Shown piece by piece: positions 5,267-22,053 of a stretch of DNA of 64,000 nucleotides. The DNA comes from Anaerolineae bacterium (lineage in GTDB: Bacteria; Chloroflexota; Anaerolineae; S140-20). Every line of letters starts with the position of its first letter. Positions within the stretch are counted from its first letter, which is position 1. The position numbers were made by a program, and so were the translations under genes. A model generated the notes under the pieces. It worked only from the letters and a program-made list of their open reading frames with translations, was not told where the DNA came from and searched no databases. The stretch is from assembly GCA_027021705.1 (NCBI GenBank), contig JALUTT010000059.1, positions 32,001 through 96,000 of the forward strand, in the 5' to 3' direction.

Positions 5267-6064
5267 TCAGCGCATCAACCGGCGCCACTCTTCCTTCAGT
5301 TGCAGGGTGTCCAGATCGTCGGTGACCAGGAAGTCGCGCAGCAGTCGGTTGAACTTGGCCTTTTCCTCCAGCATCGGGAAGTGGCGGGTCGAGGGCAGGG
5401 TGATGAAGTGGACCTGCCCCCCTGTTCCCAACAGCCCGTTGAGCCGCTCAGCTTGGGGGGGAGGGACGACGTTATCTCGTTCCCCGTGCACCAGCAGCAC
5501 AGGGACCTGGATACGGGCCAGCTTGAGGGAAAGGTTCAGCCCCCGGACGGAGTTGGCGCTGTTGATCACGGCGGTCTCTTCCGTCTTGGTGGCCTCAACG
5601 CGTACGGGTTCGTATTCGGGGGGAAGACGCCGGCCCAGGACACGGTCCACCGGTGTGCTCCCCCCCTGGTTGGAAAGGCGAGGGTTCAGGGTTTCTCCCA
5701 GCAAAGGCAGGCTGACGGCCATCACTCGAGAGACCATATCGGGATGGCGGGCGGCCAGCAGCACAGCGGTCACAGCCCCCAGGGCGTGGCCCACCAACGG
5801 GACAGGGGGTTTGATGCCCAGGTTGGTGATGAAGTCCCGCACCAGCGCTACGTAAGATTCGACGTCGTAATGGCTGTCCAGCCGGTCCGAATCACCGAAT
5901 CCCCAGAGGTCCAGGGCATAGGTGCGGTATTCGATGGAGAGTTCCTCCATCGTCGGCACCCAATAGCGCCACGAGCCCAGCCAGCCATGGATGAAGAGCA
6001 GCGGAGGTCCTCGGCCAATGGCTTCGTAATGGACCAGGCCATCACCGATGATAATCGCGCTCAT
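5267..6064 (-). CDS. Alpha/beta hydrolase-fold protein lacking the nucleophile (GHALG)
   Basis: HGW oxyanion motif, DLWGFGDS, GERD acid and RHFPM His are present; Ala occupies the Ser position. Confidence 0.9.
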   Translation of the reverse strand: MSAIIIGDGLVHYEAIGRGPPLLFIHGWLGSWRYWVPTMEELSIEYRTYALDLWGFGDSDRLDSHYDVESYVALVRDFITNLGIKPPVPLVGHALGAVTAVLLAARHPDMVSRVMAVSLPLLGETLNPRLSNQGGSTPVDRVLGRRLPPEYEPVRVEATKTEETAVINSANSVRGLNLSLKLARIQVPVLLVHGERDNVVPPPQAERLNGLLGTGGQVHFITLPSTRHFPMLEEKAKFNRLLRDFLVTDDLDTLQLKEEWRRLMR

Positions 6065-6082
6065 CGGATTCTTATCCTCTCC

Positions 6083-6484
6083 CTATACCTGTACCTGCTC
6101 CGCTCTGCGGGCTTGGACGCGCCTCAGGATGGCACGGATCTTCTCGACCAACTCTCCCGGGTCGAAGGGCTTCAGGATATATTCCTCTGCCCCTAGCTCC
6201 AGCCCCTGCTGAATCTCCGCCTCTTGCCCTTTGGCCGAGAGGAAAACGATAGGGATGTTCTGGGTGAGCGGATCGGCCTTCAGTTGGGAACAGGCCTCGT
6301 AGCCGGTCATCTTGGGCATGCGCACATCGAGCAGAATCAGGTCGGGGATCTCCTCTCGAGCCTTCTCGACGGCTTCCTCCCCATTGTTGGCCTTGATGAT
6401 CTCAAAGCCCCCCAAACTGCTCAGGGTGAACGCGATCAACTCCCGAATATCCCGTTCGTCTTCGGCAACCAGTATCTTCGTCAT
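6083..6484 (-). CDS. Single-domain response regulator
   Basis: ILVAEDE, LILLDVRMP, FLSA and KPF receiver motifs. Confidence 0.95.
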   Translation of the reverse strand: MTKILVAEDERDIRELIAFTLSSLGGFEIIKANNGEEAVEKAREEIPDLILLDVRMPKMTGYEACSQLKADPLTQNIPIVFLSAKGQEAEIQQGLELGAEEYILKPFDPGELVEKIRAILRRVQARRAEQVQV

Positions 6485-6566
6485 TGGTAACCCCTGCTTT
6501 CCTCGCCCCTTCTTCGATGTTCTTCCCTTGCACCTGGGCTTCTGGGGCCCAGGATGACGGGCCCGA

Positions 6567-9500
6567 TCAGGCCGTCCCTTTGCCCTCCAACGTGCTTTCC
6601 ATCAACCGCTCGATCTCTTCCATCAACGTCTCGATGGCAAAGGGCTTGGTCAGAAAGTGAGACGCTCCCAGCGCCAGAACTTTCTCCCGATGCCGCTCCG
6701 GCTCCGTCAGGCTGGCGGTCATAACCACGACCGGGATCTCCCGGGTGGCGGGGTCCTCCTTCAGGCGGGTCAACGTCGTGTACCCGTCCAGTCCCGGAAT
6801 CTTCAGGTCCAACAGGATCAGGTCGGGGCGGTGTTCTCGGGCCAGGGCCAGCCCCTCCTCGCCCCGGTAAGCGGCGAGAACGGTGAACCCACGCTCCTGG
6901 AGGACCTGCTGCAGCAAGGCGATGGTGTCCCGATCGTCGTCCACCACCAGGATGCTCCCTTTGGACTCCAGGATCTGGTCAACGACGTGGAGCAGTCGGC
7001 CCTCGTCTATGGGTTTGGTCAGGTAGTCCACGGCCCCCAAACGGAGCCCTTTCTGCTTGTCCTGCAGGATGGAGACGATCACGACGGGGATGTCGGTTGT
7101 GGAAGCGTCTTCCTTCAAGCTCTGCAGGAGTTCGAACCCATCCATGTCGGGCAGCCGAATGTCCAGCGTGATCAGGTCGGGGTGCATCTGGCGGGCCAGG
7201 GCCAGGGCCGTCTGCCCCTGATGAGCGATGATGGCCTGGTAGCCGCTGCCCTCCAGGTGATGACCAAGCAGGTTGGCGATGTCCGGGTCGTCCTCAACGA
7301 TGAGCACCCGGCGCACCCGAGGACCACGACCGTTGCCGGGATGGCCTTGGACGACCTCTTCCTCGACCTCCGGGGGGGCCTGGGGAAGAGGTTCCTCTTC
7401 CTCCTCCTGCGCAATGGGGAGGGTGAAGCTGAAGGTACTCCCTTGACCCGGCTCGCTCTCCACCCAAATCTCCCCGCCGTGCATCTCCACCAGCGATTTG
7501 ACGATGGAGAGCCCCAGACCCGTCCCCCGAATCTCCTGGACGAGGGGATGATCGGCCCGGAAGAAGCGGTCAAAGATCTTCTCCTGATCCTGAGGGGTGA
7601 TGCCGATGCCGGTATCCTTAACCTGGATCAGGACCATCTCACCCTGGCGCTCTGCCTGCACCGTGATCTCCCCTTCTGGCGGGGTGTACTGGTAGGCATT
7701 GCTGACCAGGTTGGTGAGGACTTGGATGAGACGGGCCGAGTCGCCCCAGACGGGGGGCAGGTCGGGCGCGACTTGGGAGTGCAGCCGCAGCCCCTTCTCC
7801 TCGGCCTTGCGGCGCAGGCTTTCCATCACCTGTTCCACCAGGCTGGCGACGTTGACCGCCCGCTTCTCCAACTCGATGCGACCGCTGTCAATGCGACCGA
7901 TGTCCAAGAGATCGTTCACCAGGTCGCTCAAGCGGTCGGCGTTGGACTTGATGATGCGCAGGAACCGCTCCTGGCCCTCGGTCAGCCGCCCGGCCGTGCC
8001 CAGGAGGAGCAGGTCGGCATACCCCTTGATGGAGGTCATCGGGGTGCGCAGTTCGTGGGAGACGGTGGAGACGAACTCGCTCTTGGCGCGCTCAGCTTCC
8101 ACCTCCTTGGTAATGTCCCGGAAGACGGAGACGGTGCCCAGGAACTCTTCTTCCATATGGACAGGGGCCAGGTGGACGCTGACGACCCGCCCCTCAATCT
8201 CCAGCCGCTCCTCCAGGTATCGGGTCTCGGCGTCCAGCATCTCTTCTGGTTCCTGCATCCACCGCTCCACCAGGGCGACCCAGGAACGGCCAGCGGTCCC
8301 GTAGAGCCCCAGCAGCTCATCAATGGAACGGCCTATAATCTGCCGACGTGGGGTGTTGAGGATCCGTTCCGCTGCCGCGTTGAAGAGGATCACGTGGCCG
8401 GTGGTGTCGGTGACCATGACGCCATCGGCGACGCCTTCCAAGATGGCCTGGCTCTTGGCCGCCTCGACCTGGATCTTCTTGAGCATCGCTCCCAGCCGTT
8501 CAGCACCCTCCCGAATCAGCCGGTAGAGCTCGGCGTTGTTGATGGCATTGGCCACTTGGATGGCGGCCGCCTCGACCAGGCGCAGATGGTCTTCGGTGAA
8601 GCGATCGGCCTCTTTGTGGAAGAGGAGGAGGGCCCCCATCGCTTCATCTCCTACAATGAGGGGGATCGCCAGGGCGGAGCGGTAGGAGCGCGGCTGTCCG
8701 TTGTCCACCCAGCGGGGGTCATGGTGGATGTCGGGCACGATGGCCGGCTCTTTGTGGGCGATGACCCAGCCGGCCAGCCCCTCCCCTCGGCGGAAGGGTG
8801 TGGGGGCTCCCCGGGGTGGGAGCCGCCGTGAGCCTCCCAGGCTCGCCCGCTGGATCAGATGGTCGGTCTGGGGATCCACCATGAAGATGGCTCCCCGATC
8901 CGCCTCCACAGCCTCTACCACCAGTTCCAACGCCCGGTTCAGCACACGATCCAGGTCCAGACTGGCGCTCAACTCACTGGTGATCCGATAAAGGGTTTCG
9001 ACCCGATCCCGCTCCATCGTTAGTTCTTCCAGCGCCTGGGCCAGCTCCTGGGTTCGCTCCTCAACCCGCTGCTCCAGCTCCTGGCTGAAGCGGGTGACCT
9101 GCTCGAAGAGCCGGGCATTTTCAATGGCTACAGCGGCGCCGTTGGCGAAGGTGAGGGCCAGTTCTGCCTTCGCCCTGTCGTAGAAGTTGGGCTCCTTCTT
9201 GTCCAAGGTCAGCATCCCCAGCAACCGATCTCCGTAGAGGAGGGGGACGCCCATCCAGGAGCGGATGTGGTCGTGGGGCGGTTCCCGGAAGGGTGCGTAG
9301 ACGGCCGGAGCATCGGCCACGATGAAGGGGGCCCGCCGCCGCACCACCTCCGTGTTGGGGTTGTCCCCACCGATGGGGAAGGTCAGCCCTACCACCGCTT
9401 CCAACTCCTCGAAGCCTCGCCCGCCGATGATCCGCAGGTGATCCTCCTCCAGCAATTGGATGGAGGCGCTGTCATACTCGACCACCTTGCGCAGTTCGTC

Positions 9501-12500
9501 CAGGATCAGGTCCAGCACTTCCTCTAGCCGCAGGGTAGAGCTGATCACCCGGGAGACCTCGACAAGGGCGGCCAGTTCCGCTGCCCGCCGCTCGGCGGCC
9601 TCGTACAGACGGGCGTTGACGATGGCCACGGCGGCTTGGGCCGCCACCGTGGTCAGCACCCGCAGGTGCTCCTCGTCGTAAGCCTGACTGTCTTGGAAAT
9701 CTTGGACGGCGATGACGCCGATCACCTCTTCGCCGGCGATCATCGGGACGCCCAACCAGGAGCAGGCTGGTCGGCCCAAGGGGGTGATGCCCATCCTCTC
9801 CATCTGGGCTTCAATATCGCCGACCAGGAGCAACGGCTGGCGGGTTCTAAGCACGTAGCCCGTCAGGCCAGCGTGGAGGGGGATGGGCTCCTGGAAGACC
9901 GGCTTCCCTTCCTCGTAGAAGAGGGGGAAGCAGATCTGCCCTTTTTCCTCCTCCAGCAGCGCGACGAAGATGTTGGAAGTGTCCATCAACCGGCCCAACT
10001 GCTGGCGGAGCGATTCTAGCACGTCGTCCAAGCGAACCGTGGCGGACAGGGCCCGTCCGATCTCGTTAACGATGGAGAGCTCGGTGAGTCGTCGCTCCTT
10101 CTCGGCATAGAGCCGGGCGTTCTCGATGGCGATGGCCGCCTGGGTGGCGAAGATCTCCAGCACCTCCACCGTGTTGCGGTCGGGGATGCGGTCGTCGCGG
10201 GGCTCGTCCACGGACATAATGCCCCAGATCTGACCGCCGGGGCCGCGCAGGGGCACGATGAGCATATCCTCCGCGTGCCAGTGTCCTGGCTCCCGCTCGA
10301 CCACGGGCAGGAGGGTGTAGGTATCCAGCCCCTCGGTCACCTCGGTCCTCTCGGCCGGGATGTAGTAGCTCTGACTGATGCGGAACTCGTCACATAGGAC
10401 CTTCTCCACTTCGGACCAGGGCTGAGTGACCTGCTTCAGCCGCTCGAAGACGGCCAAGGGGAGGCCGGCCATCGCCGCCCGGCGCAGGTGCTCGCCCTCC
10501 AAGACGCTGATGAGGACGATGTTGAACCCCACCGCCTCCTGGACGGCGTAGGCCACCTCCTCCAGGATCTCCTCCAGAGGGCGGTCGGCCCGGAAGGCCT
10601 GGCTGATCTGGAAGAGGTTGGCCAACTGCTCGGCCCGGCGGCGGAGCAGGTCACTGCGTTCCAACTGTTCCTGGTAGCGCCGAGCATTGCCGATGGCCAA
10701 GGCCGCCTGGGCCGCCAGCGCCTCCAGGAACTCGACGTGGCTGGGGGTGAAAGCGGCCTGGCGCGGGCTCTCCAGGTTGAGCACCCCGACCACGGTGGCG
10801 GCGTGCCGGATAGGGATGGCCACTTCGGAACGGGTCTCTGGAATGACCGGCAGGTAGTCGGGATCCTGGTGCACATCATCCACCCGGGCCGGCTCCCCGG
10901 TCTGAGCGACCCGTCCGACGATCCCTACCCCGGGCTGGAGCTCTATCTTCATCTCCCGGCGAGGACGGGCAGCTCCCTTGCTCGCCCGCAGGACCAGGTG
11001 CTCTCCTTCGGGGTCCAGCAGGTAGATGCTCCCGTAGAAGGCATCAGTGGCCCGGAGCGCCTCCGTCAGCACCATGTCCAAGATGCGGTTCAGGTCCAAC
11101 GTAGCATTGAGTTCCTGACCAATGCGGCTCAGGGCGGTTAGTTCCTCCACCCGCTCCTGGAGTTGCTCATCGGTCTGGCCGTAGAGGCGGGCGTTCTGGA
11201 TGGCCACGGTGACGTGCTGGGCGAAGATGCGGGCCACTTCGATCTCATCCTGGCTGAAACGGCGAGGGGCTCCCTTGCTGGCGACGGCCAGGGCTCCCAT
11301 CACCTCATCCCCGAAGATGAGGGGGATGGCCAAGACGGAGCGCAGCCCCTCACGATCGGCCAATCCAGGCCGCCCCAGGTTGGCCTCGGGAAGATCGGGG
11401 ATGACGATGGGAGTCCAAGAGCGATCGGGAGAGGTAATCAGGGCGAGAGCCCGGTCCCGGAGGATTTGCTCCTGGGCGACGTACTCCTGGGAGAGGCCGT
11501 AGCTGGCCTGGAAACGGAGCACTTCGTCGTCCGGCTCACTCATCAGGAGGGCGGTGGCCGGGGCGTCGAAGAGATGGGCGGCCTGCTCCACGATGGTGGG
11601 CAGGAGCTCCGGCAGGTTGAGCTTGGTGCTGATGGTGGCAACGCTGCTCTGGAGACGCTCCAGGGCCAGGCGTCGCCGCTGCTCCGCCCGGTAGAGGCGG
11701 GCGTTTTCTACGACGGCTGCCGCCTGGTGGGCGAAGAGGGCCAGCAGCCGGGCGTCGGCCTCGCTAAAGGGTTTCCCATCGCGCCGGTTGGATGCCTGGA
11801 TGATGCCGATCCGACGCTCCCCGACAATCATCGGGGCCAGGATGGTCGCCCGGACGCCGGCGATGAGGGCCAGAGGCTTGAGGCCCGCCTCGGCAACCAG
11901 CGGTTCCCCGGGTAGGTCGTTGCTCATCCAGTACTCCCCCTCGGTCCAGATCTGCCAGGCGGTCGTGTCCGGCTGGAGGGGGATTCGATAGCGCTGCACG
12001 ATCTCGTCGGGCACGCCATAGAAAGGAGCCTGAGCGACCAGGGCCTGCTCCTCTTCCTCGTAGAGGAGGACGCCTACCATCTCCACGTCCATCAGGTCCG
12101 CGATCCGCTGGGTCAGGTAGGTGTAGAGCTCATGTTGGTCGGTCAAGGCCCCGATCGCCTTGGAGATCTCGTGCAGCCCCGCCATCACCGTCAGACGTTG
12201 CTCGCGCTCCTGGTAGAGTTGGGCGTTCTCGATGACCGCCGCCGCCTGGTTGGCCAGGATGCAGAGCAGGCGGATGTCGTTCTCGTCGAAGGGGGAGCCA
12301 TCGTGCTTGTTGGAGACCTGCAGGATGCCGAACCGACGTCCGCCCACCGACAGCGGGGCCAGGAGCGTGCGCTGCACCCCGACCGTCGTGGCCAAGGGGA
12401 TGAGTCCGGCCTCGGCCACCATCGGGTCCTGAGCGACCTGGTTGCTCACCCAGTACTCGCTCTCCCGCCAGATCCGCTCCATCCGGCTGCCGGGAGGGAC

Positions 12501-14129
12501 GGGAATCTTGTAGTAGGCGACCAACTCGTCGGGTACCCCGTAGAAGGGAGGGCGGCTGACCAGCGCCTGTTGGGCCTCGTTGTAGAGGAGTACACCGGCC
12601 ATCTCTACCCCCATCAGCCGGGCAACGCGCTCGCTGATGCGGGCGTAGACCTGGTCCACGTCCTCCAGGGCGCTGATGGCCTGAGAGATCTGGTAGAGAC
12701 CGGCCAGCTCCTTGAGCCGCTGCTGTCGCTCTTCGTAGAGGCGGGCGTTCTGAATGGCGATGGCCGCTTGGTTAGCCAGGGAGTTCAGGGTGCTCAGGAT
12801 GCTCTCGGGAAAGGCCCCCAGCTCGTAACTGACCAACTCCAAGGAGCCGATGAACTCGTCGCCGGCCATCAGGGGCAGCCCCACGTAGGAGCGGAAGGGG
12901 TACTCGGGGCTGTCCAGCTTGGGGCGCACGTCCCGGCGGGCTTGCACATCAGGGATCCAGAGCATCTGCCGGTGGCGAGCGATCCAGCCGCTGTATCCCT
13001 CGTCCAGGTGATAGACGTTGCCCACGCGCTCGGCGTAATCCCTGTGGCCCTCCTGGGTGAAGGAGCGCATCACCTGGGCCTCCGGGTCCCACAGGCAGAT
13101 CTCCGCAATGGCATAGGGGGCCAGTTCCCCTGCAGCCTCCAGGATGGCCTGCAGGGTCTCCTCCAAATTGAGGCTGGTGCTGATGGTGCGGCTGATGCGG
13201 TTGACGATGGAGAGTTCCTCCACTCGGCGGGCCAGGGAGGTGTCGGCGATCTGGTAGAGGCGGGCATTTTCGATGGCGATGGCGCTCTTCTCGGCGATCG
13301 CCTCCAGCAGTTCCAGGTCACTCTGCTCGAAGCCCCCCTGCACCTTGTTGTAGAAGCAGAGCAGGCCGAAGGGTTCACGACCGCGCCGCAGAGGGACGGC
13401 CAACATCGTGTGGATGAAGCCGCTGCTCCGATCTACCGTCCAGCAGTAGCGGTGGTCTGAGGGGAGATCGTTGTGCAGGAAAGGCTGGTTACGGTGCAGG
13501 ATCCAATCGGCCAGGGTCTCTCGATCGAGGGGGCGCTCATTGGCCCGTTGCACCAGTTCGGGAGGCAAGCCTCGGCTCGCCGTCAGGCGCAGACGGCGCT
13601 CTCGCTCGTCGTAGAGGAGCACCTCGGCCGCCGTGGCCGAGAGGAGGGGCATCGCCCGGTCCAAAATCAAATCCAACAACTCGTCCAGGTTCAACTCCCG
13701 GCTGAAGGCCGCCCCCAGGGTGTCCAGCGTGCGATAGAGTTCCTTCTGACGACGCTGAACGCCGGCCAGTTGGCCGACCACGTAGGCCAGGACGTTGAAG
13801 AGGACGATGGAGGTGAGCATCTCAATGGCCTGAGGTGAGAACCCCTCCTCGCTGAGGATGGGAGCCAGAAGGGGGATGAAGAGGGAAACGGCTGCCAGGG
13901 CTGTGGCCAATCCGGCACCCACCCCCCAGAAGGCGGCGGCTAGGATGATGGGGACCAGGTAGAGGTAACGAAGGGCCTGGGCCCAGGGGACCCCCATATT
14001 CGCTGTGGAGTAGACCACCACCGTGACCAGGGCAGTGCTCAGGACCACAGTGCCCAGGATGATGCCATAGGGCTGTTGGACGGAGAGTCGTAGTCTGCCT
14101 CGTTGTGTCTGGGATGTCAGGAGGTTCAT
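6567..14129 (-). CDS. Hybrid sensor histidine kinase: N-terminal TMs, 10 GAF, PAS, HisKA, HATPase, 2 REC
   Basis: 2520 aa; ten A(I/V)xNAxx(Y/F) GAF-closing helices; SHELRTPM H-box; N, G1, F and G2 boxes; two receiver domains. Confidence 0.95.
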   Translation of the reverse strand: MNLLTSQTQRGRLRLSVQQPYGIILGTVVLSTALVTVVVYSTANMGVPWAQALRYLYLVPIILAAAFWGVGAGLATALAAVSLFIPLLAPILSEEGFSPQAIEMLTSIVLFNVLAYVVGQLAGVQRRQKELYRTLDTLGAAFSRELNLDELLDLILDRAMPLLSATAAEVLLYDERERRLRLTASRGLPPELVQRANERPLDRETLADWILHRNQPFLHNDLPSDHRYCWTVDRSSGFIHTMLAVPLRRGREPFGLLCFYNKVQGGFEQSDLELLEAIAEKSAIAIENARLYQIADTSLARRVEELSIVNRISRTISTSLNLEETLQAILEAAGELAPYAIAEICLWDPEAQVMRSFTQEGHRDYAERVGNVYHLDEGYSGWIARHRQMLWIPDVQARRDVRPKLDSPEYPFRSYVGLPLMAGDEFIGSLELVSYELGAFPESILSTLNSLANQAAIAIQNARLYEERQQRLKELAGLYQISQAISALEDVDQVYARISERVARLMGVEMAGVLLYNEAQQALVSRPPFYGVPDELVAYYKIPVPPGSRMERIWRESEYWVSNQVAQDPMVAEAGLIPLATTVGVQRTLLAPLSVGGRRFGILQVSNKHDGSPFDENDIRLLCILANQAAAVIENAQLYQEREQRLTVMAGLHEISKAIGALTDQHELYTYLTQRIADLMDVEMVGVLLYEEEEQALVAQAPFYGVPDEIVQRYRIPLQPDTTAWQIWTEGEYWMSNDLPGEPLVAEAGLKPLALIAGVRATILAPMIVGERRIGIIQASNRRDGKPFSEADARLLALFAHQAAAVVENARLYRAEQRRRLALERLQSSVATISTKLNLPELLPTIVEQAAHLFDAPATALLMSEPDDEVLRFQASYGLSQEYVAQEQILRDRALALITSPDRSWTPIVIPDLPEANLGRPGLADREGLRSVLAIPLIFGDEVMGALAVASKGAPRRFSQDEIEVARIFAQHVTVAIQNARLYGQTDEQLQERVEELTALSRIGQELNATLDLNRILDMVLTEALRATDAFYGSIYLLDPEGEHLVLRASKGAARPRREMKIELQPGVGIVGRVAQTGEPARVDDVHQDPDYLPVIPETRSEVAIPIRHAATVVGVLNLESPRQAAFTPSHVEFLEALAAQAALAIGNARRYQEQLERSDLLRRRAEQLANLFQISQAFRADRPLEEILEEVAYAVQEAVGFNIVLISVLEGEHLRRAAMAGLPLAVFERLKQVTQPWSEVEKVLCDEFRISQSYYIPAERTEVTEGLDTYTLLPVVEREPGHWHAEDMLIVPLRGPGGQIWGIMSVDEPRDDRIPDRNTVEVLEIFATQAAIAIENARLYAEKERRLTELSIVNEIGRALSATVRLDDVLESLRQQLGRLMDTSNIFVALLEEEKGQICFPLFYEEGKPVFQEPIPLHAGLTGYVLRTRQPLLLVGDIEAQMERMGITPLGRPACSWLGVPMIAGEEVIGVIAVQDFQDSQAYDEEHLRVLTTVAAQAAVAIVNARLYEAAERRAAELAALVEVSRVISSTLRLEEVLDLILDELRKVVEYDSASIQLLEEDHLRIIGGRGFEELEAVVGLTFPIGGDNPNTEVVRRRAPFIVADAPAVYAPFREPPHDHIRSWMGVPLLYGDRLLGMLTLDKKEPNFYDRAKAELALTFANGAAVAIENARLFEQVTRFSQELEQRVEERTQELAQALEELTMERDRVETLYRITSELSASLDLDRVLNRALELVVEAVEADRGAIFMVDPQTDHLIQRASLGGSRRLPPRGAPTPFRRGEGLAGWVIAHKEPAIVPDIHHDPRWVDNGQPRSYRSALAIPLIVGDEAMGALLLFHKEADRFTEDHLRLVEAAAIQVANAINNAELYRLIREGAERLGAMLKKIQVEAAKSQAILEGVADGVMVTDTTGHVILFNAAAERILNTPRRQIIGRSIDELLGLYGTAGRSWVALVERWMQEPEEMLDAETRYLEERLEIEGRVVSVHLAPVHMEEEFLGTVSVFRDITKEVEAERAKSEFVSTVSHELRTPMTSIKGYADLLLLGTAGRLTEGQERFLRIIKSNADRLSDLVNDLLDIGRIDSGRIELEKRAVNVASLVEQVMESLRRKAEEKGLRLHSQVAPDLPPVWGDSARLIQVLTNLVSNAYQYTPPEGEITVQAERQGEMVLIQVKDTGIGITPQDQEKIFDRFFRADHPLVQEIRGTGLGLSIVKSLVEMHGGEIWVESEPGQGSTFSFTLPIAQEEEEEPLPQAPPEVEEEVVQGHPGNGRGPRVRRVLIVEDDPDIANLLGHHLEGSGYQAIIAHQGQTALALARQMHPDLITLDIRLPDMDGFELLQSLKEDASTTDIPVVIVSILQDKQKGLRLGAVDYLTKPIDEGRLLHVVDQILESKGSILVVDDDRDTIALLQQVLQERGFTVLAAYRGEEGLALAREHRPDLILLDLKIPGLDGYTTLTRLKEDPATREIPVVVMTASLTEPERHREKVLALGASHFLTKPFAIETLMEEIERLMESTLEGKGTA

Positions 14130-15025
14130 CGTAGCACGCTCATCAGACCAAAGACCACGTTGCTAGCATAGCCTGGCAGGATGCTGCGGGACCAGCGGAA
14201 GAGGGCCGAGGCCGTGAACGCAGCAGTCAGGCTGTAGAAGGCCGCGCCTACGATGATCAAAGGATCCGCACTGAAGTTCTGCTTGACCAAGACGGTAGCC
14301 GCTTCCAGCCCGGCAGTCAGGAAGGCAGCCGTCCAGAATCCGAGCCCTCGGGAGAAGTAGAGTTCGTTGAAGACAACCCCACGCATGAAGAGCTCTTCGG
14401 ACAGGGACTGAGGCCCAACCTCGTAGCAGGTTTGCCAGAAGAAATAGGGCCAGGGTTTCCAGGAGAGAGAGTCCAGGCCAGAGAGGGCGATAATGGCGAG
14501 GAGGTGACTGCCGATGAGCAGGCCCACACTCGCACCCACCGGCACCTGGGCCCGCCAGTGACGGAAATCGAGCCCCACCCGGCGCATTGCTTCGGGCTTC
14601 TTCTTCACGGCGAAGGCTACGATGCCCCAGAAGAGGAGCATTATCCCCCCCCAGAGCAGGCGGAGGCTGGAGGCGCGGGGACTTCGGAGCAGTTCTCCTT
14701 GGAGTCCGCCCTTCGTCAGAAGATCGCTCCCGATCATCACGCCTAGCCCCACGACATAGGCGAAGAAGGTCCAGCGCCGAGCCTGTCGGGGGCGGTGGCG
14801 CAATCCGTACCAGATGGCGGCTGCCAGGTAGAGACAGAGTGAGAAAGCCTCAGCGGTAATGGAGGTGATCACCGTTGGCCATCCCATCCGGTCCACGATG
14901 CCCACACCTGCTATGGACAACACGGCTACCAGAAAGATGACGCCCGTGGTCCGGCGGCGTTCTTGCCTCAGTCTCTCCGTTCGCTCTACCCAGTCGTCGC
15001 GGACGGTGTAAACAAGGGCCGACAT
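14126..15025 (-). CDS. CPBP/Abi (CAAX protease)-like membrane protein with degenerate metal motifs
   Basis: Multi-TM protein; SEELFMRG motif 1 is present but no His follows it; ATG 15025 follows GGAGGAGG; ATGA overlap with the kinase. Confidence 0.75.
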   Translation of the reverse strand: MSALVYTVRDDWVERTERLRQERRRTTGVIFLVAVLSIAGVGIVDRMGWPTVITSITAEAFSLCLYLAAAIWYGLRHRPRQARRWTFFAYVVGLGVMIGSDLLTKGGLQGELLRSPRASSLRLLWGGIMLLFWGIVAFAVKKKPEAMRRVGLDFRHWRAQVPVGASVGLLIGSHLLAIIALSGLDSLSWKPWPYFFWQTCYEVGPQSLSEELFMRGVVFNELYFSRGLGFWTAAFLTAGLEAATVLVKQNFSADPLIIVGAAFYSLTAAFTASALFRWSRSILPGYASNVVFGLMSVLR

Positions 15026-15162
15026 AGCCTCCTCCCCTGATGAGCTCCTCACTGCCCTAGCTCCGGCCCTCTGAGGCCGAGAGGCGGCGAGGAGGTCCTT
15101 TCCGCTGACCCTGCCCTCTCGGTGCCTGAGGACCCTCCAAGGCGTCCGTCAGGGCGGGGGGA

Positions 15163-16089
15163 TCAGGCAGGCAGGCGGCTCTGACTCTGGGCCTGCATCT
15201 GGCGGGCGGCGATACGGCGTTTCTCTGCCGCGACTTCGGTGATCTCGCGGATGTCGGAGAACGGCCCATCGTCAGGGGTCACAATGCCGACGGCCAAGCT
15301 CATCAGCGGGACCTTCTGCTCCTGCCCCCGTTCATCTTTAGCAACGATGTAACCCCGCTCCCGATCCATGAAGTTGTAGTGGGTCCCGACCTCCTGAGAG
15401 AAGCGGGCCACGATCCGGTCGCGGATGGCCGGCCCACGCTCGGTCGTGGTGATGACGACGAAATCGTCACCTCCCCGATGGCCCACGAAGTCGTCGGGCG
15501 TCCCCAGTTCGTTCAGGGTCTGGTTCAGGATGTGGGCGAGGGAGCGGAGCACCTGGTTGCCTGCGATGAAACCGTAGACGTTGTCGAACTGCTCCTTGTA
15601 GTTGATGCCGATGAAGAGAAAGCTCCAATCATCCCGCCGCATCAGCTCTCGGAGCTGTTCTTCGATCAGCTTGCCGCTGGGCAGTCCCGTGTTGGGCTCC
15701 GTCAAGCCCTCCCGACGATACCACTCCAAGGCGCGCTGCACCCGCAGTCGGAGCTCTTCGATGTCGAAGGGCTTGGTAATGTAGTCGTCGGCCCCGAGTT
15801 CCAGCCCCTGGATTTTGTCGGAGCGCTCATCCCGCTGGGTCAGGAAGATGATGGGGATGTGGCTGGTGCGCAAGGTGCTGCGCAGGCGCCGGCAGACCTC
15901 GAACCCATCAATGTCGGGCAGGTTGATGTCCAGCACGATCACTTCTGGAGGCTGCTGGCGGCATCGTTCCAGCGCTTCTCCTCCCCGGGGAGCGACCTCG
16001 ACCTCGTATTCCTGCGACTGGAAGTAGATACGCAGCATGTTCGAGATGTCGAAGTCGTCCTCGACGATCAGGATATGACCCTTGCTCAT
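15163..16089 (-). CDS. Response regulator with a degenerate GGDEF (GGDDF) domain
   Basis: N-terminal REC domain; TGLP...YG...GGDDFVV in the C-terminal half. Confidence 0.9.
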   Translation of the reverse strand: MSKGHILIVEDDFDISNMLRIYFQSQEYEVEVAPRGGEALERCRQQPPEVIVLDINLPDIDGFEVCRRLRSTLRTSHIPIIFLTQRDERSDKIQGLELGADDYITKPFDIEELRLRVQRALEWYRREGLTEPNTGLPSGKLIEEQLRELMRRDDWSFLFIGINYKEQFDNVYGFIAGNQVLRSLAHILNQTLNELGTPDDFVGHRGGDDFVVITTTERGPAIRDRIVARFSQEVGTHYNFMDRERGYIVAKDERGQEQKVPLMSLAVGIVTPDDGPFSDIREITEVAAEKRRIAARQMQAQSQSRLPA

Positions 16090-16174
16090 TGGCTCACCTC
16101 CGCCTGCTCAAGTGGCATCACCTACGCTCCCAAAGGCGATGGCCTGGACATCGCCGGGATGACCAGGCATCCAT

Positions 16175-17257
16175 CTACCCCCCCGTCCGTTGGGCCTTGG
16201 TGCGAATGCGTTCAATCTCCTCCTCGCTCACCGGGCGTTCGAAGCTGCGAAACCCCTCGACCCGAAACCCGTGTTTCTCGGCCAGATGACCAATCTCCTG
16301 CACCCTCTCGATCTGGATCTCCTTGCCCAAGGTGAAGGGCTCAAAGCGTCCCTCCAGGGCCAGGATCATCGTCTCTGCCATACAGGCGTAAGCCTTGCCT
16401 GGTGGAAAGCCGAAGTCGAAGTGGAAGTCCACCGGACCCGGCACTTTGACCATGCCTCCCTCGATGACCAGGACGTCGTCCCGGGCCTCGACGACCTGGC
16501 GCGAAACGTCCCGAGGACGGGCCACGTCGCAGACCACAGCTCCTGATTTCAGATGGTGCGGTTCGATGATGGACTCGATCGCGCTGGTCACGGTGATCAC
16601 AACGTCGGCCTGACGCAGGGCGCTTAGGTCTGTCGTGGTGCGGACCTTGGCGTCCGTCTCCGCCTCGATCTGCTCGCGCAATGCGTCCAACCGCTCCTGA
16701 CGGCGACCGACGAGGATCATCTCGGGGACCTCCCGACTGAGCAGCCGGGCGGAGACGGAACCGATGGCCCCCGTCGCTCCCACCACGGCGGCCACCGCCT
16801 GGTTCAAGACAATCCCCATTCGCTGCGCGGCCTGGCGCGCTGCCTCCACAGCCACGTAGACGGTGTAGCTGTCCCCCGTCGTGACGGGTATCCGCAGGCC
16901 CTTGGAGATGGTCACGCCCGCATCTCCGATCACCGAGGTGAAGGCCCCCAATCCCAAGATCTGGGCTCCCAGCCGTTCGGCCAGCCGCCCTGTCTGGATG
17001 ATCTTCTTGTAGACCACCGGAGGCGGCAGTGTCATCATCCGCTGAGGGGTGAAAGGGCAGGCCACGAACCATCCCTCGACCTCCTCCCCCGTCGCTTCCG
17101 AGCGCACGCCGGTGATGTGGGAGATGTAGACCGGGGGGAAGTAACGGGAGAAGAAGTTGATGGCTGCGACGGGCAACAGCTTCCCCAGCAGCGGGAACTT
17201 GCGCTGGACGTCTTTCTTGGGGTCTATGGGATGGATGATGAAGGCGAAGGTGTTCAT
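16175..17257 (-). CDS. Acyl-ACP/acyl-CoA reductase-like NAD(P)-binding protein (shikimate-DH-like fold)
   Basis: FAFIIHP, LGLGAFTS, TTGDSYT, GATGAIG, DVARPRD and YACMAETMIL parallel cyanobacterial AAR motifs. Confidence 0.75.
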   Translation of the reverse strand: MNTFAFIIHPIDPKKDVQRKFPLLGKLLPVAAINFFSRYFPPVYISHITGVRSEATGEEVEGWFVACPFTPQRMMTLPPPVVYKKIIQTGRLAERLGAQILGLGAFTSVIGDAGVTISKGLRIPVTTGDSYTVYVAVEAARQAAQRMGIVLNQAVAAVVGATGAIGSVSARLLSREVPEMILVGRRQERLDALREQIEAETDAKVRTTTDLSALRQADVVITVTSAIESIIEPHHLKSGAVVCDVARPRDVSRQVVEARDDVLVIEGGMVKVPGPVDFHFDFGFPPGKAYACMAETMILALEGRFEPFTLGKEIQIERVQEIGHLAEKHGFRVEGFRSFERPVSEEEIERIRTKAQRTGG

Positions 17258-17297
17258 TGTCTCCCCAGGCTTCGTCGTAGGGTGGGATGGGAATCGC

Positions 17298-18566
17298 TCA
17301 CGCCTCGGCCTGCGGCTCTCGGGGGTAGAGGCGTGGATGCATCTCTGTCCCGCCGGGAATCTTGTGATGGTCGCTCTCCTCGTAACGGACGTTCTTGGCG
17401 ATGACCCGCCGCTCCGGTGACGCGAAGAGCACCGTGTCCGATTCGATCATCCGGGCCGGGTAGATGATCAGTCCGGAGCCCAGACGGCAGTTGTGCCCCA
17501 CGCACCCTCCCAGGACGGGGAACCCTGCCTCTTGTAACTCCCCTTCGTGCAGGGCCCGAATGGGCTTGGGGAGCAGGTTGAAGTCGGTGAAGGTGGTCCC
17601 AGCACCGATGAAGGTGTTGCGTCCCACCACGCACATCTGCAGGCAGGTGTTCTGGGCCACGATGGAGTGTTCCATCAACGTGGTCATGAACAGGGAGGCG
17701 CGAAAGGGTAGATAGCAGCCGTCGGAGACGACGCTCAGCAGCAATTGGGCTCCCTGCATGATGTTCACGTTCTCGCCCACGATGGAGTTGCAGACGTAGG
17801 CGCCGGCGTGAATCCGACTGTTGTCCCCAATGTAGGTCGGTCCTTGAATGACCGCTGTCGGATCGATCTCGACGTTCTTGCCCACGTAGACGAGGGCGGA
17901 ACTGGAGAGGAACTGGCGACGCTCCAGGAGCGAACGGCCCAGGATGCGCAGCTTGGCCCACAGGTTCTGCTTGACTTCCTTTTCCTTGCGTGCTCCCTCG
18001 GCGAAGATACCGAAAACGATGTTGGCCACGAAAACGTGCACCCAGTGTTCGATGGAGAGAAACGCCTTGGTGGGAACCTGGTAGACCAGGTCACCCTGCT
18101 GGGGGGCCATGTAGGTCGGCACGTGGTAGTATCCGACTTCGTAGGCCTCCGTGTCGATCACCAAGGGGACGACTTCCTCCTCCAGACCCCGGGGGAAGTA
18201 CCACATGTCGGCCACGTAGACATCCCCCTGACGTCGGATCCCCTTTTGCAGCGTCAGGGCGTGGGAGGTGATCGCCTTGTCCTCTAGGGAGAAGGCGACC
18301 CGACAAGCCTTGCCCAGCTCACGCGCCCGCTGGATGAACTCCTCGAAGAAGGGCTTGTCGAAGAAGAGGTTATCCCGGTAGACCAGGGTCTCGACGCGGT
18401 CCTTGGGGATCTCTTCGAAGGAGTGGACGGGCCGTTCCCGATCACAGTAGGGGGCCAGGATGTCCCGCTGATGGAGCCAGAGCCGCTTGTTGAGCACGGT
18501 CAGCTCTCGGGCCGGCTCGTTGAAAGGGGGAATGTACCGCTTATCCTCGATAATGATCTTGCGCAT
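17298..18566 (-). CDS. GlmU-like protein: degenerate nucleotidyltransferase domain plus left-handed beta-helix
   Basis: Hexapeptide repeats (VGKNVEIDPTAVIQGPTYIGDN...); no GxG(T/S)R motif. Confidence 0.75.
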   Translation of the reverse strand: MRKIIIEDKRYIPPFNEPARELTVLNKRLWLHQRDILAPYCDRERPVHSFEEIPKDRVETLVYRDNLFFDKPFFEEFIQRARELGKACRVAFSLEDKAITSHALTLQKGIRRQGDVYVADMWYFPRGLEEEVVPLVIDTEAYEVGYYHVPTYMAPQQGDLVYQVPTKAFLSIEHWVHVFVANIVFGIFAEGARKEKEVKQNLWAKLRILGRSLLERRQFLSSSALVYVGKNVEIDPTAVIQGPTYIGDNSRIHAGAYVCNSIVGENVNIMQGAQLLLSVVSDGCYLPFRASLFMTTLMEHSIVAQNTCLQMCVVGRNTFIGAGTTFTDFNLLPKPIRALHEGELQEAGFPVLGGCVGHNCRLGSGLIIYPARMIESDTVLFASPERRVIAKNVRYEESDHHKIPGGTEMHPRLYPREPQAEA

Positions 18567-18666
18567 TGCGGTTGGCCCTCATCTCAAACCGTCCCAACGA
18601 TCACCAAGACCATCCCCGACCGATGAGCTGTTGAAGACACCACTGTCCTGCTCCTCCCAAGCGCCG

Positions 18667-19317
18667 TCAGTCCAGGGGTTGCTTGTCAATGAGGATGGTG
18701 CATGTCTCGTCTCCCTGGGCGATGCAGGAAACCTCTTCCACGTAGAAGTTCTTCCCTCCGCTGACCCAGTATAGCGATTCCTGCAGGATGCCCACGGCCA
18801 GGAAACAGGCCGGGTAGGAGGTGTGGCGTCCCCAGCAGACGGGACACCGTTCGATGATCCAGAAGAAGTGCTCCTCGTCCTCGTCCAGGCGCACCACCTG
18901 GTCGGTGAACTTGTTGAAGGTCTCGGCGAAGACCTCAAACCCCACCTTGAGCTTCATCCCCAGGGGGAGCAATCGAAAGGCCAGGTCGGCGATGCCCAGG
19001 ACAGGTCCAAATTCCTTGATGCCGTACTTGAAACAGGCCCGTCCGGCCCGTAGGGCCAGGCCCCGTCCTCCCCGGGGGCCGTACATCTCGTCGAGAGCCC
19101 GTTGGATGGCTCCGATCTCCTCGAAGCTGAACTGAAGGTCAAAGTTGTTGGGGGGGTAGTTGTTCACCCGATGTTGCAACCGAGCCAGGTTTAGCACTGC
19201 GTTGACCCCATTGCGTCCCATCACCTCCTCCATAGCCAGGAGGATGATGCGGCCCATCTTGTTGGGGTAGTGGTAGCCGGATGAGCGTTCTGTCGCAGCT
19301 TCGCGCATTGGTGTCAA
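18667..19317 (-). CDS. V4R (4-vinyl reductase) domain protein
   Basis: C-terminal CPVC...C...EVSCIAQGDETC pattern; start uncertain (19317 or 19308). Confidence 0.85.
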   Translation of the reverse strand: MTPMREAATERSSGYHYPNKMGRIILLAMEEVMGRNGVNAVLNLARLQHRVNNYPPNNFDLQFSFEEIGAIQRALDEMYGPRGGRGLALRAGRACFKYGIKEFGPVLGIADLAFRLLPLGMKLKVGFEVFAETFNKFTDQVVRLDEDEEHFFWIIERCPVCWGRHTSYPACFLAVGILQESLYWVSGGKNFYVEEVSCIAQGDETCTILIDKQPLD

Positions 19318-20123
19318 CCGCCCTTTCGTATCGGTGTGCTCGTGCTCAGAAAGTCCTGGATGGTCGCGATGAACCGCTCGGGTTCATCCAGCATTGGGAA
19401 GTGGCGGGAACGGGGCATCATCTGGACGCGGGCGTGGGGGACTCCCTGGGTGAGCATCTCTGCCTGATTGGGATTGACGATGTTGTCCCGCACGCCGAAG
19501 ACGCCTAGCGTGGGCACCCGGATCTCCTGGAGGCGGGGGAAGAGGTTGGTGTGGTGGAGATCCCCAATGCTTCGGAAGAAGGACTCGGTGTTGGCCTTCG
19601 AGACATCCCGGAAGATCATCCGGCGGACTTTGGGAGAATCCCCGGCTAGAACGATCCACATCACCATCCGGAGGATGAGGGGGATGCGCCAGATCAGATG
19701 GGCGATCCAGCGCACGCCGGCCAGCTTCAGGAAGAGGTTCAGCGACCGCCCGTCTATGGGAGAGCCCACGATGGCCACCCGGGTCACCCGCTGGGGGTGG
19801 TCGAGGGTGAGCTTGAGGGCCACGGTTCCCCCCATTGAGTGGCCGAACACCGGCGCCCGTTCAATCCCCAGCGCCTCCATGAACTGGTCCACCATCTGGG
19901 CGTAGGAATCAATTTTGAAGGGCGGTGCCTGCTCCTTGGCGGATTCCCCAAAGCCCCAGAAGTCGAGGGCGTAGACCTTGTAACGTCCCAGGCTCGCAAT
20001 GGCGATCATCGAGTCCCGCCACACATCCCAGGAGTTGATCCAACCGTGGAGCAGGATGACTGGCTTGCCCCGGCCATAGGCTTCGTAGTGAACAATCCCT
20101 TGGTCGGTAACAATGGAACTCAC
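19314..20123 (-). CDS. Alpha/beta hydrolase with an intact triad (GHSMG)
   Basis: HGW, DFWGFGES, GHSMGG, GVRD and RHFPM. Confidence 0.92.
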   Translation of the reverse strand: MSSIVTDQGIVHYEAYGRGKPVILLHGWINSWDVWRDSMIAIASLGRYKVYALDFWGFGESAKEQAPPFKIDSYAQMVDQFMEALGIERAPVFGHSMGGTVALKLTLDHPQRVTRVAIVGSPIDGRSLNLFLKLAGVRWIAHLIWRIPLILRMVMWIVLAGDSPKVRRMIFRDVSKANTESFFRSIGDLHHTNLFPRLQEIRVPTLGVFGVRDNIVNPNQAEMLTQGVPHARVQMMPRSRHFPMLDEPERFIATIQDFLSTSTPIRKGG

Positions 20124-20409
20124 CGTCTGTTCCTATCTCCCTCATCCCGCACGCAGGCGGTCGGGTTCCCCGGGCTCCGGGGATACCTCAGTCCTTTCGA
20201 CGCAGCAGGATAATTCGCAGACGCGCCCGCCACCGAAGGCAGGCGCGACCTGAACCAGAACCTTTGAACGGCTCAGGTGCCCGGCCCTCGCGAGCCAGCG
20301 TGCGGAATCGTCTGGACGCAGAACCCCTCTCCGATGATCCCCTGAGATCACAGTCGAAAGTGCCGGGCACCCTCTGATTCTGCCTGTAGCGATACAGGCC
20401 CCAGACGTG

Positions 20410-20967
20410 TTACTCGCTTTCCGCCTCTTCAGCGTCCATCCGTTCCAGAATGGAGTAGAGGAGTTCCAGGAGAACCCGCTTCACGCTCTCCCGGTCGGTG
20501 GCTACACAGGGCAGGACCTTCACGCCATCCTCAATCCGCAGGGCGATGCGCAGGTCCTCCACAGACCAGGCATCTTCCATATCCTGCTTGTTCGCCGCCA
20601 CCACGTAAGGGGTTGGGGCGTAGGCGCGGAAGGTGTCCAGGATATTCCGCGCCTCCCGGAAGGTCTCCGGACGCACACTGTCAATCAACACAATGAAGCC
20701 TAGCATTCCTTCGGAGAGGATCTCCCACATGAAGTCGAAGCGCTTCTGTCCGGGGGTGCCGAAGAGGTAGAGCACCAGGTCCTCGTCCACGGTGATCCGA
20801 CCAAAGTCCATGGCCACCGTGGTGCGCTCTTTGATACGCTCCGACTCGCTGGAGATTTTGCGCTCCGTGGAGACGACCTCGATCTCACTGATCGTCTGGA
20901 TGAACTGGGTTTTGCCTGCCGCGAAGGGGCCTGTGACGACCATCTTGACGGTTTGTACTTTGCCCAT
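20410..20967 (-). CDS. MglA/CvnD-like small GTPase
   Basis: GPFAAGKT P-loop, TTVAMDFG, LFGTPGQKRF and ANKQD. Confidence 0.92.
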   Translation of the reverse strand: MGKVQTVKMVVTGPFAAGKTQFIQTISEIEVVSTERKISSESERIKERTTVAMDFGRITVDEDLVLYLFGTPGQKRFDFMWEILSEGMLGFIVLIDSVRPETFREARNILDTFRAYAPTPYVVAANKQDMEDAWSVEDLRIALRIEDGVKVLPCVATDRESVKRVLLELLYSILERMDAEEAESE

Positions 20968-21043
20968 TGTCCTGCGACCACCCTGTTGTGTCAATGACGA
21001 GAAGTAGGATTGCTTAGTCGAGAAGGGAAAGGGCCGATGGGGC

Positions 21044-21889
21044 TCAGAGTTGCTTGATGCGGTCTATCAACCGCATAACGACGGAGCGCTTGACCGCTGG
21101 CGGCCGTTGGGCCGGCGGTGGGAGGGGAGCTTCCCGGCGCTCCCCACCCCGACTGGGTGGAGCGACCTCTCTGCCCTCTGGACGGACCAGTTCGACCAGC
21201 CCCGCCTGCAGCATCCCGTAGACGATCTTCCGAATCTGGAACTCGCTCATGTTGGTGGCTTGAGCGATCTGGCGGATGGTGTTGCGCGGGTTGATAAAGG
21301 AAATCACCCGCCACTCCTCAATGCTCAGGCTGATGTTGCGCAAGGAGGTGCCGGGGCGATCGGTGAAGCGCAAGGCCATATCCAGGTCGGGCAGTTCGTC
21401 CTGGAGCTGCTCCCACTCCTTCATCCGCCGGGTGCCCTCGATGATGACGTTCTCCAGGCCGATGGGCACCGTGATCCGTTCCGGCGGGGGGAGTTGATTG
21501 GGTTCGAAGCGGAACTTCCCATCCGTCCAGGTGAAGAGCTGGTAGACGATCTCCAGCATGTGCTGCCGCACGCTCTGCAGGATGTCCTTCTGCGTAACGT
21601 AGCCCGCGTTGATGAGCCAGAGTCCCAGCTCCTTGTCGTCCGTCGCGTTCACCTGGGCCTGGATGAGCCGGGTCTGCTCGGTCGTTAGCCGCCCTGCCTT
21701 GAGCAGAATCTGGTCCAGCCGGTTGTGCTGGTTGCCCAGGGAGGCATAGACCAGTTTCCCCTCGCGAAAGCAGAGGTCTGCCCGCTCTGAAGAGCGTTCC
21801 ACCGTCAGGGTACCCGTCTTTCGGGCCAGATTGATGAGGTTCAACAGTTGGGTAATGCTAAAATCACGCAGGTTTCCTTTTAATGCCAT
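21044..21889 (-). CDS. DUF4388 (PatA-N-like) domain protein with a C-terminal wHTH-like region
   Basis: MALKGNLRDFSITQLLNLI..KTGTL, WTDGKFRF; C-terminal TIRQIAQATNMSEFQIRKIVYGMLQAGLV. Confidence 0.88.
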   Translation of the reverse strand: MALKGNLRDFSITQLLNLINLARKTGTLTVERSSERADLCFREGKLVYASLGNQHNRLDQILLKAGRLTTEQTRLIQAQVNATDDKELGLWLINAGYVTQKDILQSVRQHMLEIVYQLFTWTDGKFRFEPNQLPPPERITVPIGLENVIIEGTRRMKEWEQLQDELPDLDMALRFTDRPGTSLRNISLSIEEWRVISFINPRNTIRQIAQATNMSEFQIRKIVYGMLQAGLVELVRPEGREVAPPSRGGERREAPLPPPAQRPPAVKRSVVMRLIDRIKQL

Positions 21890-22024: not shown

Positions 22025-22053
22025 ATTATACCCGTTCTTATACAGCAAGTCAA
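22025..22053 (-). promoter_or_regulatory. sigma70 promoter heading the signalling cluster
   Basis: Minus strand TTGACT, 17 nt, TATAAT. Confidence 0.75.

Follow-up and report, generated by a model that had tools for sequence, protein, structure and literature searches.

A stretch of 64,000 nucleotides (nt) from an Anaerolineae bacterium (contig JALUTT010000059.1, positions 32,001 to 96,000; hereafter the window) carries a block of 11 open reading frames (ORFs), g01 to g11, arranged in tandem on the minus strand (5267..21889), the strand of all other window features given below. The block is a real, strongly conserved operon of filamentous Chloroflexota and is made up of two modules. Module A pairs a PATAN/DUF4388 protein with an MglA-family small GTPase; module B comprises a V4R-domain protein, a GlmU-shaped protein with an LbH domain, a response regulator that joins REC to a degenerate GGDEF domain, a multi-GAF hybrid histidine kinase, and a hydrolase-fold protein that has lost its nucleophilic Ser. 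We favor, with moderate confidence, the reading that both modules form one cytoplasmic signaling system leading from a phosphorelay to a GTPase. This reading draws on gene content and order, on the loss of catalytic residues, on the co-occurrence of the modules across genomes, and on a predicted complex between the PATAN protein and the GTPase.

The first-pass annotation of this DNA, made from the letters and their translations, had described eleven co-oriented genes; their coordinates and Pfam domains were reproduced here, the CPBP-like call only marginally. It had also named a lack of conserved gene order in other genomes, or unrelated transcription units, as observations that would speak against its reading. 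Order is instead kept in many genomes of two classes, and the block stands. We examined 100 related loci, 20 cut from different families and 80 further ones from named records, and counted order by tblastn with only those loci in each denominator that had enough flank. The 80 further loci are all of Chloroflexota type (Anaerolineae, Anaerolineales, Thermoflexia, Ornatilinea, and Chloroflexia) and have the same order as the window; within the window's class, the complete series (g01–g07 followed by g09–g11) is found again. The REC-GGDEF regulator (g07) is in order in 85/90 loci, the kinase (g09) in 78/86, the GTPase (g02) in 68/87, the PATAN gene (g01) in 62/80, the first hydrolase (g03) in 70/90, and the reductase (g06) in 71/94. 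For the V4R gene (g04) the figure is 65/94, an undercount, as some V4R copies are divergent. Behind the kinase, the Ser-less hydrolase (g11) follows in 28 of 29 loci and the single-domain REC protein (g10) in 16 of 29. Because the same order recurs in other genomes, the arrangement is not due to chance.

Ten genes make up this conserved unit, rather than the eleven first described. The gene set apart is g08 (14126..15052), a membrane protein with a marginal CPBP-like score (Pfam Rce1-like, PF02517, 19.3 bits against a cut-off of 22.4), whose translation shows an EExxxR-like stretch (EELFMR) and no visible His motifs of that family. It sits between regulator and kinase only in the window's lineage, where its end and the kinase start share 4 nt. 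None of the 100 related loci contains a match to it, including those with larger regulator-kinase gaps. This gap is at most about 135 nt in all but 7 of 71 measurable loci and typically 10–20 nt, and even in the two nearest relatives the kinase starts 10–20 nt past the regulator. Public data hold 45 relatives of g08 (41–100% identity, of which 4 carry PF02517), so g08 is best taken as a real gene and a lineage-specific insertion.

Nine of the examined loci come from the other class (L039–L042, L044–L047, and L052; families f22, f38, f59, and f68), and there the modules come apart. LbH, REC-GGDEF, and kinase genes are retained in 9/9 of these loci, the Ser-less hydrolase in 7/9, and V4R, again by tblastn, in 5/9; the reductase and the intact hydrolase are absent from all nine. 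The PATAN-GTPase pair stands at a separate locus in each of the four other-class genomes examined. A uvrA gene lies on the same strand directly upstream of the V4R/LbH genes in six loci from four families (L039, L040, L042, L045, L047, and L124); we considered it as an extra conserved partner and set it aside as inherited synteny.

The two modules nevertheless tend to occur in the same genomes, even when unlinked. We sampled 401 genomes across the phylum, including five unpublished ones that are negative for both LbH and GTPase (G173, G272, G344, G145, and G227). LbH serves as the best-conserved marker: 66 of the 401 genomes have it, at 46–62% identity (55–62% in comparisons across classes), among them every genome of families f2 (24) and f22 (25). 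A GTPase orthologue (E ≤ 1e-74; matches of at least 66% identity) is present in 64/66 LbH-positive genomes versus 4/335 LbH-negative ones, and a fifth LbH-negative genome (G049) carries a cut copy. Within family f4, a single genome of nine (G234) has either gene, and it has both; of the two genomes in family f8, one (G250) has both and the other (G322) has neither. These family patterns suggest joint gain or loss. Taken together, the co-occurrence is supportive, though not decisive, of modules A and B belonging together, as judged from gene presence.

Module A itself is compact. Wherever they were examined, also in genomes without LbH, g01 and g02 are direct neighbors. The GTPase g02 (20410..20994; likely starting at the ATG at 20967) matches Pfam ATP_bind_1, Ras, and Arf and the PDB profiles of Sec4, Arf, and MglA. 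Its G3 motif reads GTPGQ in the window and in 73/73 aligned sequences, G2 contains TT in 73/73, and G4 is NKQD in 71/73. In the portion of PMC4316618 available, GTPGQ in place of DxxGQ in G3, together with a Thr that replaces the intrinsic Arg finger beside the G2 Thr, is the signature of MglA Groups 2–5. Both motifs thus assign g02, at the sequence level, to the MglA family, Groups 2–5; Group 2 is unlikely because its G4 would be NxFD, not the NKQD seen here. MglB/Roadblock genes beside the GTPase were sought through PF03259, which has six matches in the genome (five over cut-off), none on the contig of the operon (C59) or that of a GTPase paralogue (C132). This paralogue (54% identity; G000:C132:31233-32754, L002:498-2019) stands after an OmpR-type regulator and before arginyl-tRNA synthetase and has no PATAN gene.

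Its neighbor g01 (21044..21889, 281 amino acids) is a PATAN/DUF4388 protein (PF14332, 3.2e-33, 114.8 bits against a cut-off of 25), and the PF14332 match recurs in 32/32 orthologues. A MarR_2-like winged helix was detected by Pfam in 23 of these 32; g01 itself has no REC domain. The structure model (predicted local distance difference test, pLDDT, 84.3) contains a PATAN sheet with a helical insertion (the alpha-clip), the winged helix, a disordered linker, and a conserved C-terminal helix. Alpha-clip residues 53–110 match the N-termini of PilF, PilB, and MshE. The winged helix (residues 165–239) aligns with GATOR1 chain 8fw5_C at Z 11.4 (root-mean-square deviation 1.6 over 75 residues) and with a SEA-complex chain at Z 9.9; generic MarR-type matches reach Z of about 6. 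The PATAN core gave no Foldseek match at E ≤ 0.001, and no solved chain matched it.

The pairwise complex prediction proposed in the first-pass annotation was run for g01 and g02 with GTP and Mg, using our own alignments and three controls, and it passed these controls: the pair scored 0.75 against 0.33 for the best control. The mark for such scores is reached by 116/157 solved complexes and 2/215 mismatched pairs, a benchmark that holds only roughly here, as our runs used their own alignments and included GTP and Mg. At least 77% of contacts agree among the runs, and partner pLDDT is at least 79. Since no solved chain matches the PATAN core, the score is unlikely to come from model memory. 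The contacts involve residues 1–22 and 267–281 of g01 and, on g02, beta1, residues 58–66, and residues 159–181. Named g01 interface residues are at least 90% conserved in 16 of 25 cases, compared with 77 of 281 residues overall. None of the named g02 contact residues lies in the P-loop or in GTPGQ (unnamed contacts may exist). The modeled complex supports binding of g01 to g02, and in it the PATAN-winged-helix protein would hold the GTPase through its invariant N-terminus and C-terminal helix, at the face to which beta1, the beta2-beta3 hairpin, and the C-terminal helix of g02 contribute. This face is opposite the nucleotide pocket, so g01 may act like an anchor or effector, unlike an active-site GTPase-activating protein (GAP). 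In MglA, the beta2-beta3 hairpin shifts register with the bound nucleotide; given this shift, binding of g01 could depend on the nucleotide state of g02. The earlier claim of a GTPase switch with a PATAN partner is thus well supported, by the GTPGQ and NKQD motifs as well as by the complex score.

Module B is dominated by the hybrid histidine kinase g09 (6567..14129, 2520 amino acids), in which Pfam finds 10 GAF domains, PAS, HisKA, HATPase_c, and 2 REC domains. Its H-box reads SHELRTP, its N-terminal region is hydrophobic, and a crude hydropathy count gives 4 hydrophobic segments. The regulator g07 (15163..16089; Pfam REC-GGDEF) retains the REC Asp motif in its orthologues, but its GGDEF match covers only profile positions 6–92 of 161 and its motif is GGDDF. 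None of 85 orthologues has GG[DE]EF, and GGDNF is found in 55 of them. A second regulator, g10 (6083..6484), is a single REC domain (Pfam 1.3e-30). The hydrolase-fold protein g11 (5267..6064; Abhydrolase_1, 9e-25) has the elbow GHALGA, a Ser-to-Ala change; among 30 orthologues, 21 have Gly in place of the nucleophile, 5 have Ala, 2 have Asp, and 2 retain Ser, and the His is kept in 30/30. The degenerate sites of g07 and g11 pointed out in the first-pass annotation are therefore conserved features across orthologues and not local decay (0/85 GG[DE]EF; Ser in 2/30).

Two further proteins of module B resemble ligand-binding or enzymatic folds. The V4R protein g04 (18667..19317; PF02830, 33.1 bits against a cut-off of 31) has five cysteines (C158, C161, C171, C198, and C206), every one of which is conserved in 91% or more of 66 sequences; the pattern is at least as compatible with sensing of redox state or metals as with binding of lipids. 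V4R adjoins LbH in the other class and directly follows the PATAN-GTPase pair in the LbH-negative genome G210. As V4R is the one component that adjoins each of the others somewhere, we propose it as the candidate link between the modules. The window's own genome holds a second, stand-alone pair of V4R (53% identity) and REC-degenerate-GGDEF (44% identity) genes at G000:C2:56719-58263, and extra V4R and REC-GGDEF pairs are found upstream of g01 in 4 of the 100 loci (L101, L110, L114, and L121).

The LbH protein g05 (17298..18566; Pfam Hexapep/LbH) is shaped like GlmU and ST0452, with a nucleotidyltransferase (NT)-like N-domain before the LbH domain. Its model (pLDDT 71) matches ST0452 (8.4e-11), GMPPA/B, GlmU, and eIF2B in Foldseek, and its NCBIfam scores are all far below cut-offs (best 37.1 bits against 292.1). 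GlmU and the sugar-1-phosphate nucleotidyltransferases carry the N-terminal signature G-x-G-T-R. The g05 N-terminus reads IIIEDKRYIPPF, with no G-x-G, so that the two-domain fold is present and the family score and signature are not. Residues invariant across the LbH family are P14, F77, W175, G247, G315, D328, and G353. Public data contain at least 5000 clusters of LbH homologues at 90% identity, the best 120 of which have Chloroflexota names or none. The wider family counts 4067 representatives at E ≤ 0.001 (126 at E ≤ 1e-30), and judging by the biosynthetic settings of some distant members it is probably enzymatic. One distant relative (P0262, 813 amino acids) is fused to a family-2 glycosyltransferase (GT2); another (L138:10001-11254) is surrounded by B12-radical-SAM, methyltransferase, SDR, and prenyl-cyclase-like genes. 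In such a setting of B12-radical-SAM, methyltransferase, and SDR genes, the relative P0182 (35% identity) has none of the operon's partners and was discarded as a witness for the operon. In the ESM Atlas, Myxococcota is the most frequent phylum in two clusters of LbH look-alikes (scores 0.99 and 0.98).

We infer the direction of signaling, the ligands, and the output along the following lines. Cytoplasmic small-molecule or redox cues would reach the GAF domains, V4R, and the pseudoenzymes, and the phosphorelay would respond. In it, the multi-GAF/PAS hybrid kinase would phosphorylate the REC regulator, whose GGDEF-like domain presumably cannot make cyclic di-GMP, and in the window's class also the single-domain REC protein. 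The Cys-rich V4R, the GlmU-shaped LbH protein, and the Ser-less hydrolase would accompany the kinase as enzyme-like ligand-binding or scaffold proteins. Working together with V4R, the phosphorylated regulator would then act on the PATAN-GTPase switch, whose response might place or activate a filament envelope, surface, or motility machine other than a type IVa pilus.

Several observations weigh against this single-system reading. The cluster contains no MglB/Roadblock gene, and neither a GAP nor a guanine nucleotide exchange factor was identified for g02; the g01-g02 result is model confidence and not a measurement. The LbH protein could still be an enzyme, as its wider relatives occur in biosynthetic settings. 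Transcription of g01 to g11 as one unit is a prediction, and in the window a structured spacer of 286 nt follows the GTPase gene. Modules A and B occupy separate loci in the other class, where either could function by itself. The PATAN-GTPase pair persists in four LbH-negative genomes, and two LbH-positive ones have no close GTPase orthologue; moreover, co-occurrence was counted among related genomes, which do not supply independent evidence.

The spacer (20124..20409) departs from intergenic distances that elsewhere in the block range from −4 to 110 nt. Its minimum free energy is −139.3 kcal/mol (z −3.57), and 0 of 200 shuffles were as stable. It has no Rfam match at E ≤ 1 and no second copy in the genome. 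In most relatives the g02-g03 gap is about 20–25 nt; in several it is 200–600 nt (200–520 nt in nearer ones), and the spacer sequence is not conserved in nine relatives with long spacers.

An alternative reading is that the block consists of two or three independent units lying side by side in one class: a PATAN-GTPase switch (perhaps with its hydrolase), a small-molecule unit of V4R and LbH (perhaps with the reductase), and an ordinary two-component system with a hydrolase-like neighbor. The PATAN-GTPase pair does stand by itself both in the other class and where LbH is lacking, V4R-REC-GGDEF pairs likewise exist on their own, and the long spacer, in the window as in several relatives, falls right behind the pair. 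Yet dozens of loci keep the order with spacers of about 20–25 nt, the REC-GGDEF gene follows LbH in 85 of 90 loci, and LbH and GTPase, which co-occur in 64/66 genomes versus 4/335, seem to have been lost together within f4 and f8. We regard independent units as unlikely, though the strongest of the alternatives.

Somewhat less probable again, in our view, is the acyl-signal circuit that the first-pass annotation had put at the core. In that scheme an acyl-derived aldehyde would be the signal, produced by the reductase, broken down by the intact hydrolase, and sensed by the dead hydrolase, V4R, and the GAF domains, which would in turn set the GTPase. The two enzymes keep their catalytic residues: g03 (19314..20123; Abhydrolase_1, 9.7e-32) has an intact Ser-Asp-His triad, with GHSMGG in the window and the triad kept in 73/75 orthologues, and g06 (16175..17257), a thioester reductase of the AAR/PigE-N family with a Shikimate_DH-type NAD(P) domain, keeps its catalytic Cys in 72/72 orthologues along with the NAD(P) motif. 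The Ser-less hydrolase retains its His in 30/30, and ligand binding in its pocket may thus persist; V4R domains are thought, in the part of PMC2253512 at hand, to bind hydrophobic ligands. The best NCBIfam match of g06, however, is the PigE N-terminal reductase (1e-65, 222.6 bits; cut-off 850), and its match to the acyl–acyl carrier protein reductase AAR (TIGR04058; 1.4e-40, 139.6 bits) is far below the equivalog cut-off of 449.7; PDB matches are 4ppm and 6jzq. The reductase is missing from 23/94 loci and hydrolase 1 from 20/90, both from all nine other-class loci, and the block has no acyl carrier protein, synthase, or aldehyde-consuming enzyme. An aldehyde-deformylating oxygenase (ADO) gene was not found (PF11266, no match in this 94.9%-complete genome), so that an AAR-ADO alkane pathway was set aside, and the five conserved V4R cysteines also count against the circuit. 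Since the reductase and the intact hydrolase are, by their distribution, accessory enzymes added in the window's class, the circuit does not appear to be core, and the acyl-signal idea is possible solely for these accessory genes.

MglA-family GTPases of Groups 2–5 with neighboring PATAN genes are treated by Wuichet and Sogaard-Andersen 2014 (PMC4316618), a paper that cites Makarova et al. 2006. Our searches on DUF4388/PATAN, conservon, MglA/gliding, and V4R/small-GTPase topics found no published description of this operon, and it is apparently an undescribed variant of bacterial small-GTPase signaling; an appendix table of PMC8756737 lists four operon genes as nitrite reductase gene neighbors. 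Like the MglA Groups 2–5 of PMC4316618, as far as its excerpted text goes, module A has a Ras-like GTPase of one domain, in which G3 reads GTPGQ and a Thr takes the place of the Arg finger in G2, and a PATAN gene directly upstream of it. Unlike them, the operon has no MglB/Roadblock partner, g01 carries a winged helix and a C-terminal helix and no REC, and the pair is part of, or occurs in the same genomes as, a phosphorelay-pseudoenzyme module of eight genes of which that excerpt gives no description.

Actinobacterial conservons, which comprise the CvnA kinase, CvnB Roadblock, CvnC (DUF742), and CvnD GTPase (PMC4316618; also the subject of PMC13343842 and PMC13621833), are a further parallel in joining a histidine kinase to an MglA-family GTPase with modulating accessory proteins. 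Their GTPases belong to MglA Group 2 with an NxFD G4, according to the same partial text of PMC4316618. In contrast, the operon described here has NKQD in G4 and no Roadblock, its hybrid kinase carries 10 GAF and 2 REC domains, and the operon includes genuine response regulators; DUF742/CvnC has no Pfam match at E ≤ 1 in g01 or in 32 PATAN orthologues. Conservon membership was rejected on these grounds (no Roadblock, no DUF742, NKQD). With cyanobacterial PatA-type (PATAN-REC) proteins, as partially described in the literature, g01 shares a PATAN domain with an alpha-clip insertion, which serves there as an output module for protein binding. It differs in having no fused REC, so that phosphorylation would need to act in trans, and the known PilB1/PilC motor target was not found in PilT and MshEN searches.

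The NT-LbH and V4R folds have counterparts among eukaryotic regulators. Non-catalytic NT-LbH proteins such as GMPPA and eIF2B gamma/epsilon, as well as Bet3/TRAPP, work in GTPase or nucleotide-sugar regulation. They share folds with g05 (NT-LbH) and g04 (V4R), although this is a likeness of fold only, and wider LbH relatives occur in biosynthetic contexts. The operon might accordingly be imagined as a multi-subunit regulator platform for a Ras-like GTPase, built from folds that eukaryotes use (GATOR1-like winged helix, V4R/Bet3, dead NT-LbH), switched by the phosphorelay and steering gliding or polarity machinery of filamentous Chloroflexota; we hold this to be a doubtful proposal, a little below the acyl circuit. 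Bet3/TRAPP does descend from V4R according to the part of PMC2253512 available.

As to output, filamentous Chloroflexota are reported to glide, by an apparatus that is not among the characterized systems of a 2026 review (PMC13104615, in part). PilT (TIGR01420) is above cut-off in 53 of the 401 phylum genomes, and PilT and LbH (66 genomes) are mutually exclusive in the sample; in family f30, PilT accompanies the PATAN-GTPase pair and LbH is absent. That the system regulates type IV pilus motility, like cyanobacterial PATAN regulators and Myxococcus MglA/SofG, is very unlikely and the least probable of the alternatives: a Synechocystis PATAN domain binds PilB1 and PilC (10.1101/2021.06.11.447907, in part), the g01 alpha-clip resembles the N-termini of PilF, PilB, and MshE, and gliding is reported, yet PilT is found in 0/66 LbH-positive genomes and the 94.9%-complete genome has no MshEN-domain ATPase and just three T2SSE ATPases of about 450 amino acids, which led us to reject the type IVa pilus as output.

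A sigma-70-like promoter site, TTGACT-17-TATAAT (22025..22053), was located 136 nt upstream of g01 where the first-pass annotation had described it, and it matches the consensus at 11/12 positions; because the scan gave 5 such sites against 2.5 ± 1.6 in shuffles, this consensus match alone is weak evidence. The block is flanked by a DUF3048 gene, a PMT_2-like gene, and an ORF of 865 amino acids, none with a visible link to the operon. The latter ORF lies downstream (2084–4681) and belongs to no Pfam family at E ≤ 0.001. Rfam gave no gathering-level match anywhere in the window.

With at least 5000 LbH clusters in public data, the operon would constitute major regulatory hardware in Anaerolineae and Chloroflexia. 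His-Asp phosphorelays and Ras-like GTPases are rarely wired together in bacteria, and here they appear to be linked without the usual MglB. The conserved pseudoenzymes offer a natural test case for the reuse of enzyme folds as sensors or scaffolds, and the predicted PATAN-GTPase interface is open to a direct mutational test. More generally, because motility and polarity are under the control of PATAN and MglA proteins in other organisms, the operon may provide a genetic handle on gliding in the filamentous Chloroflexota.

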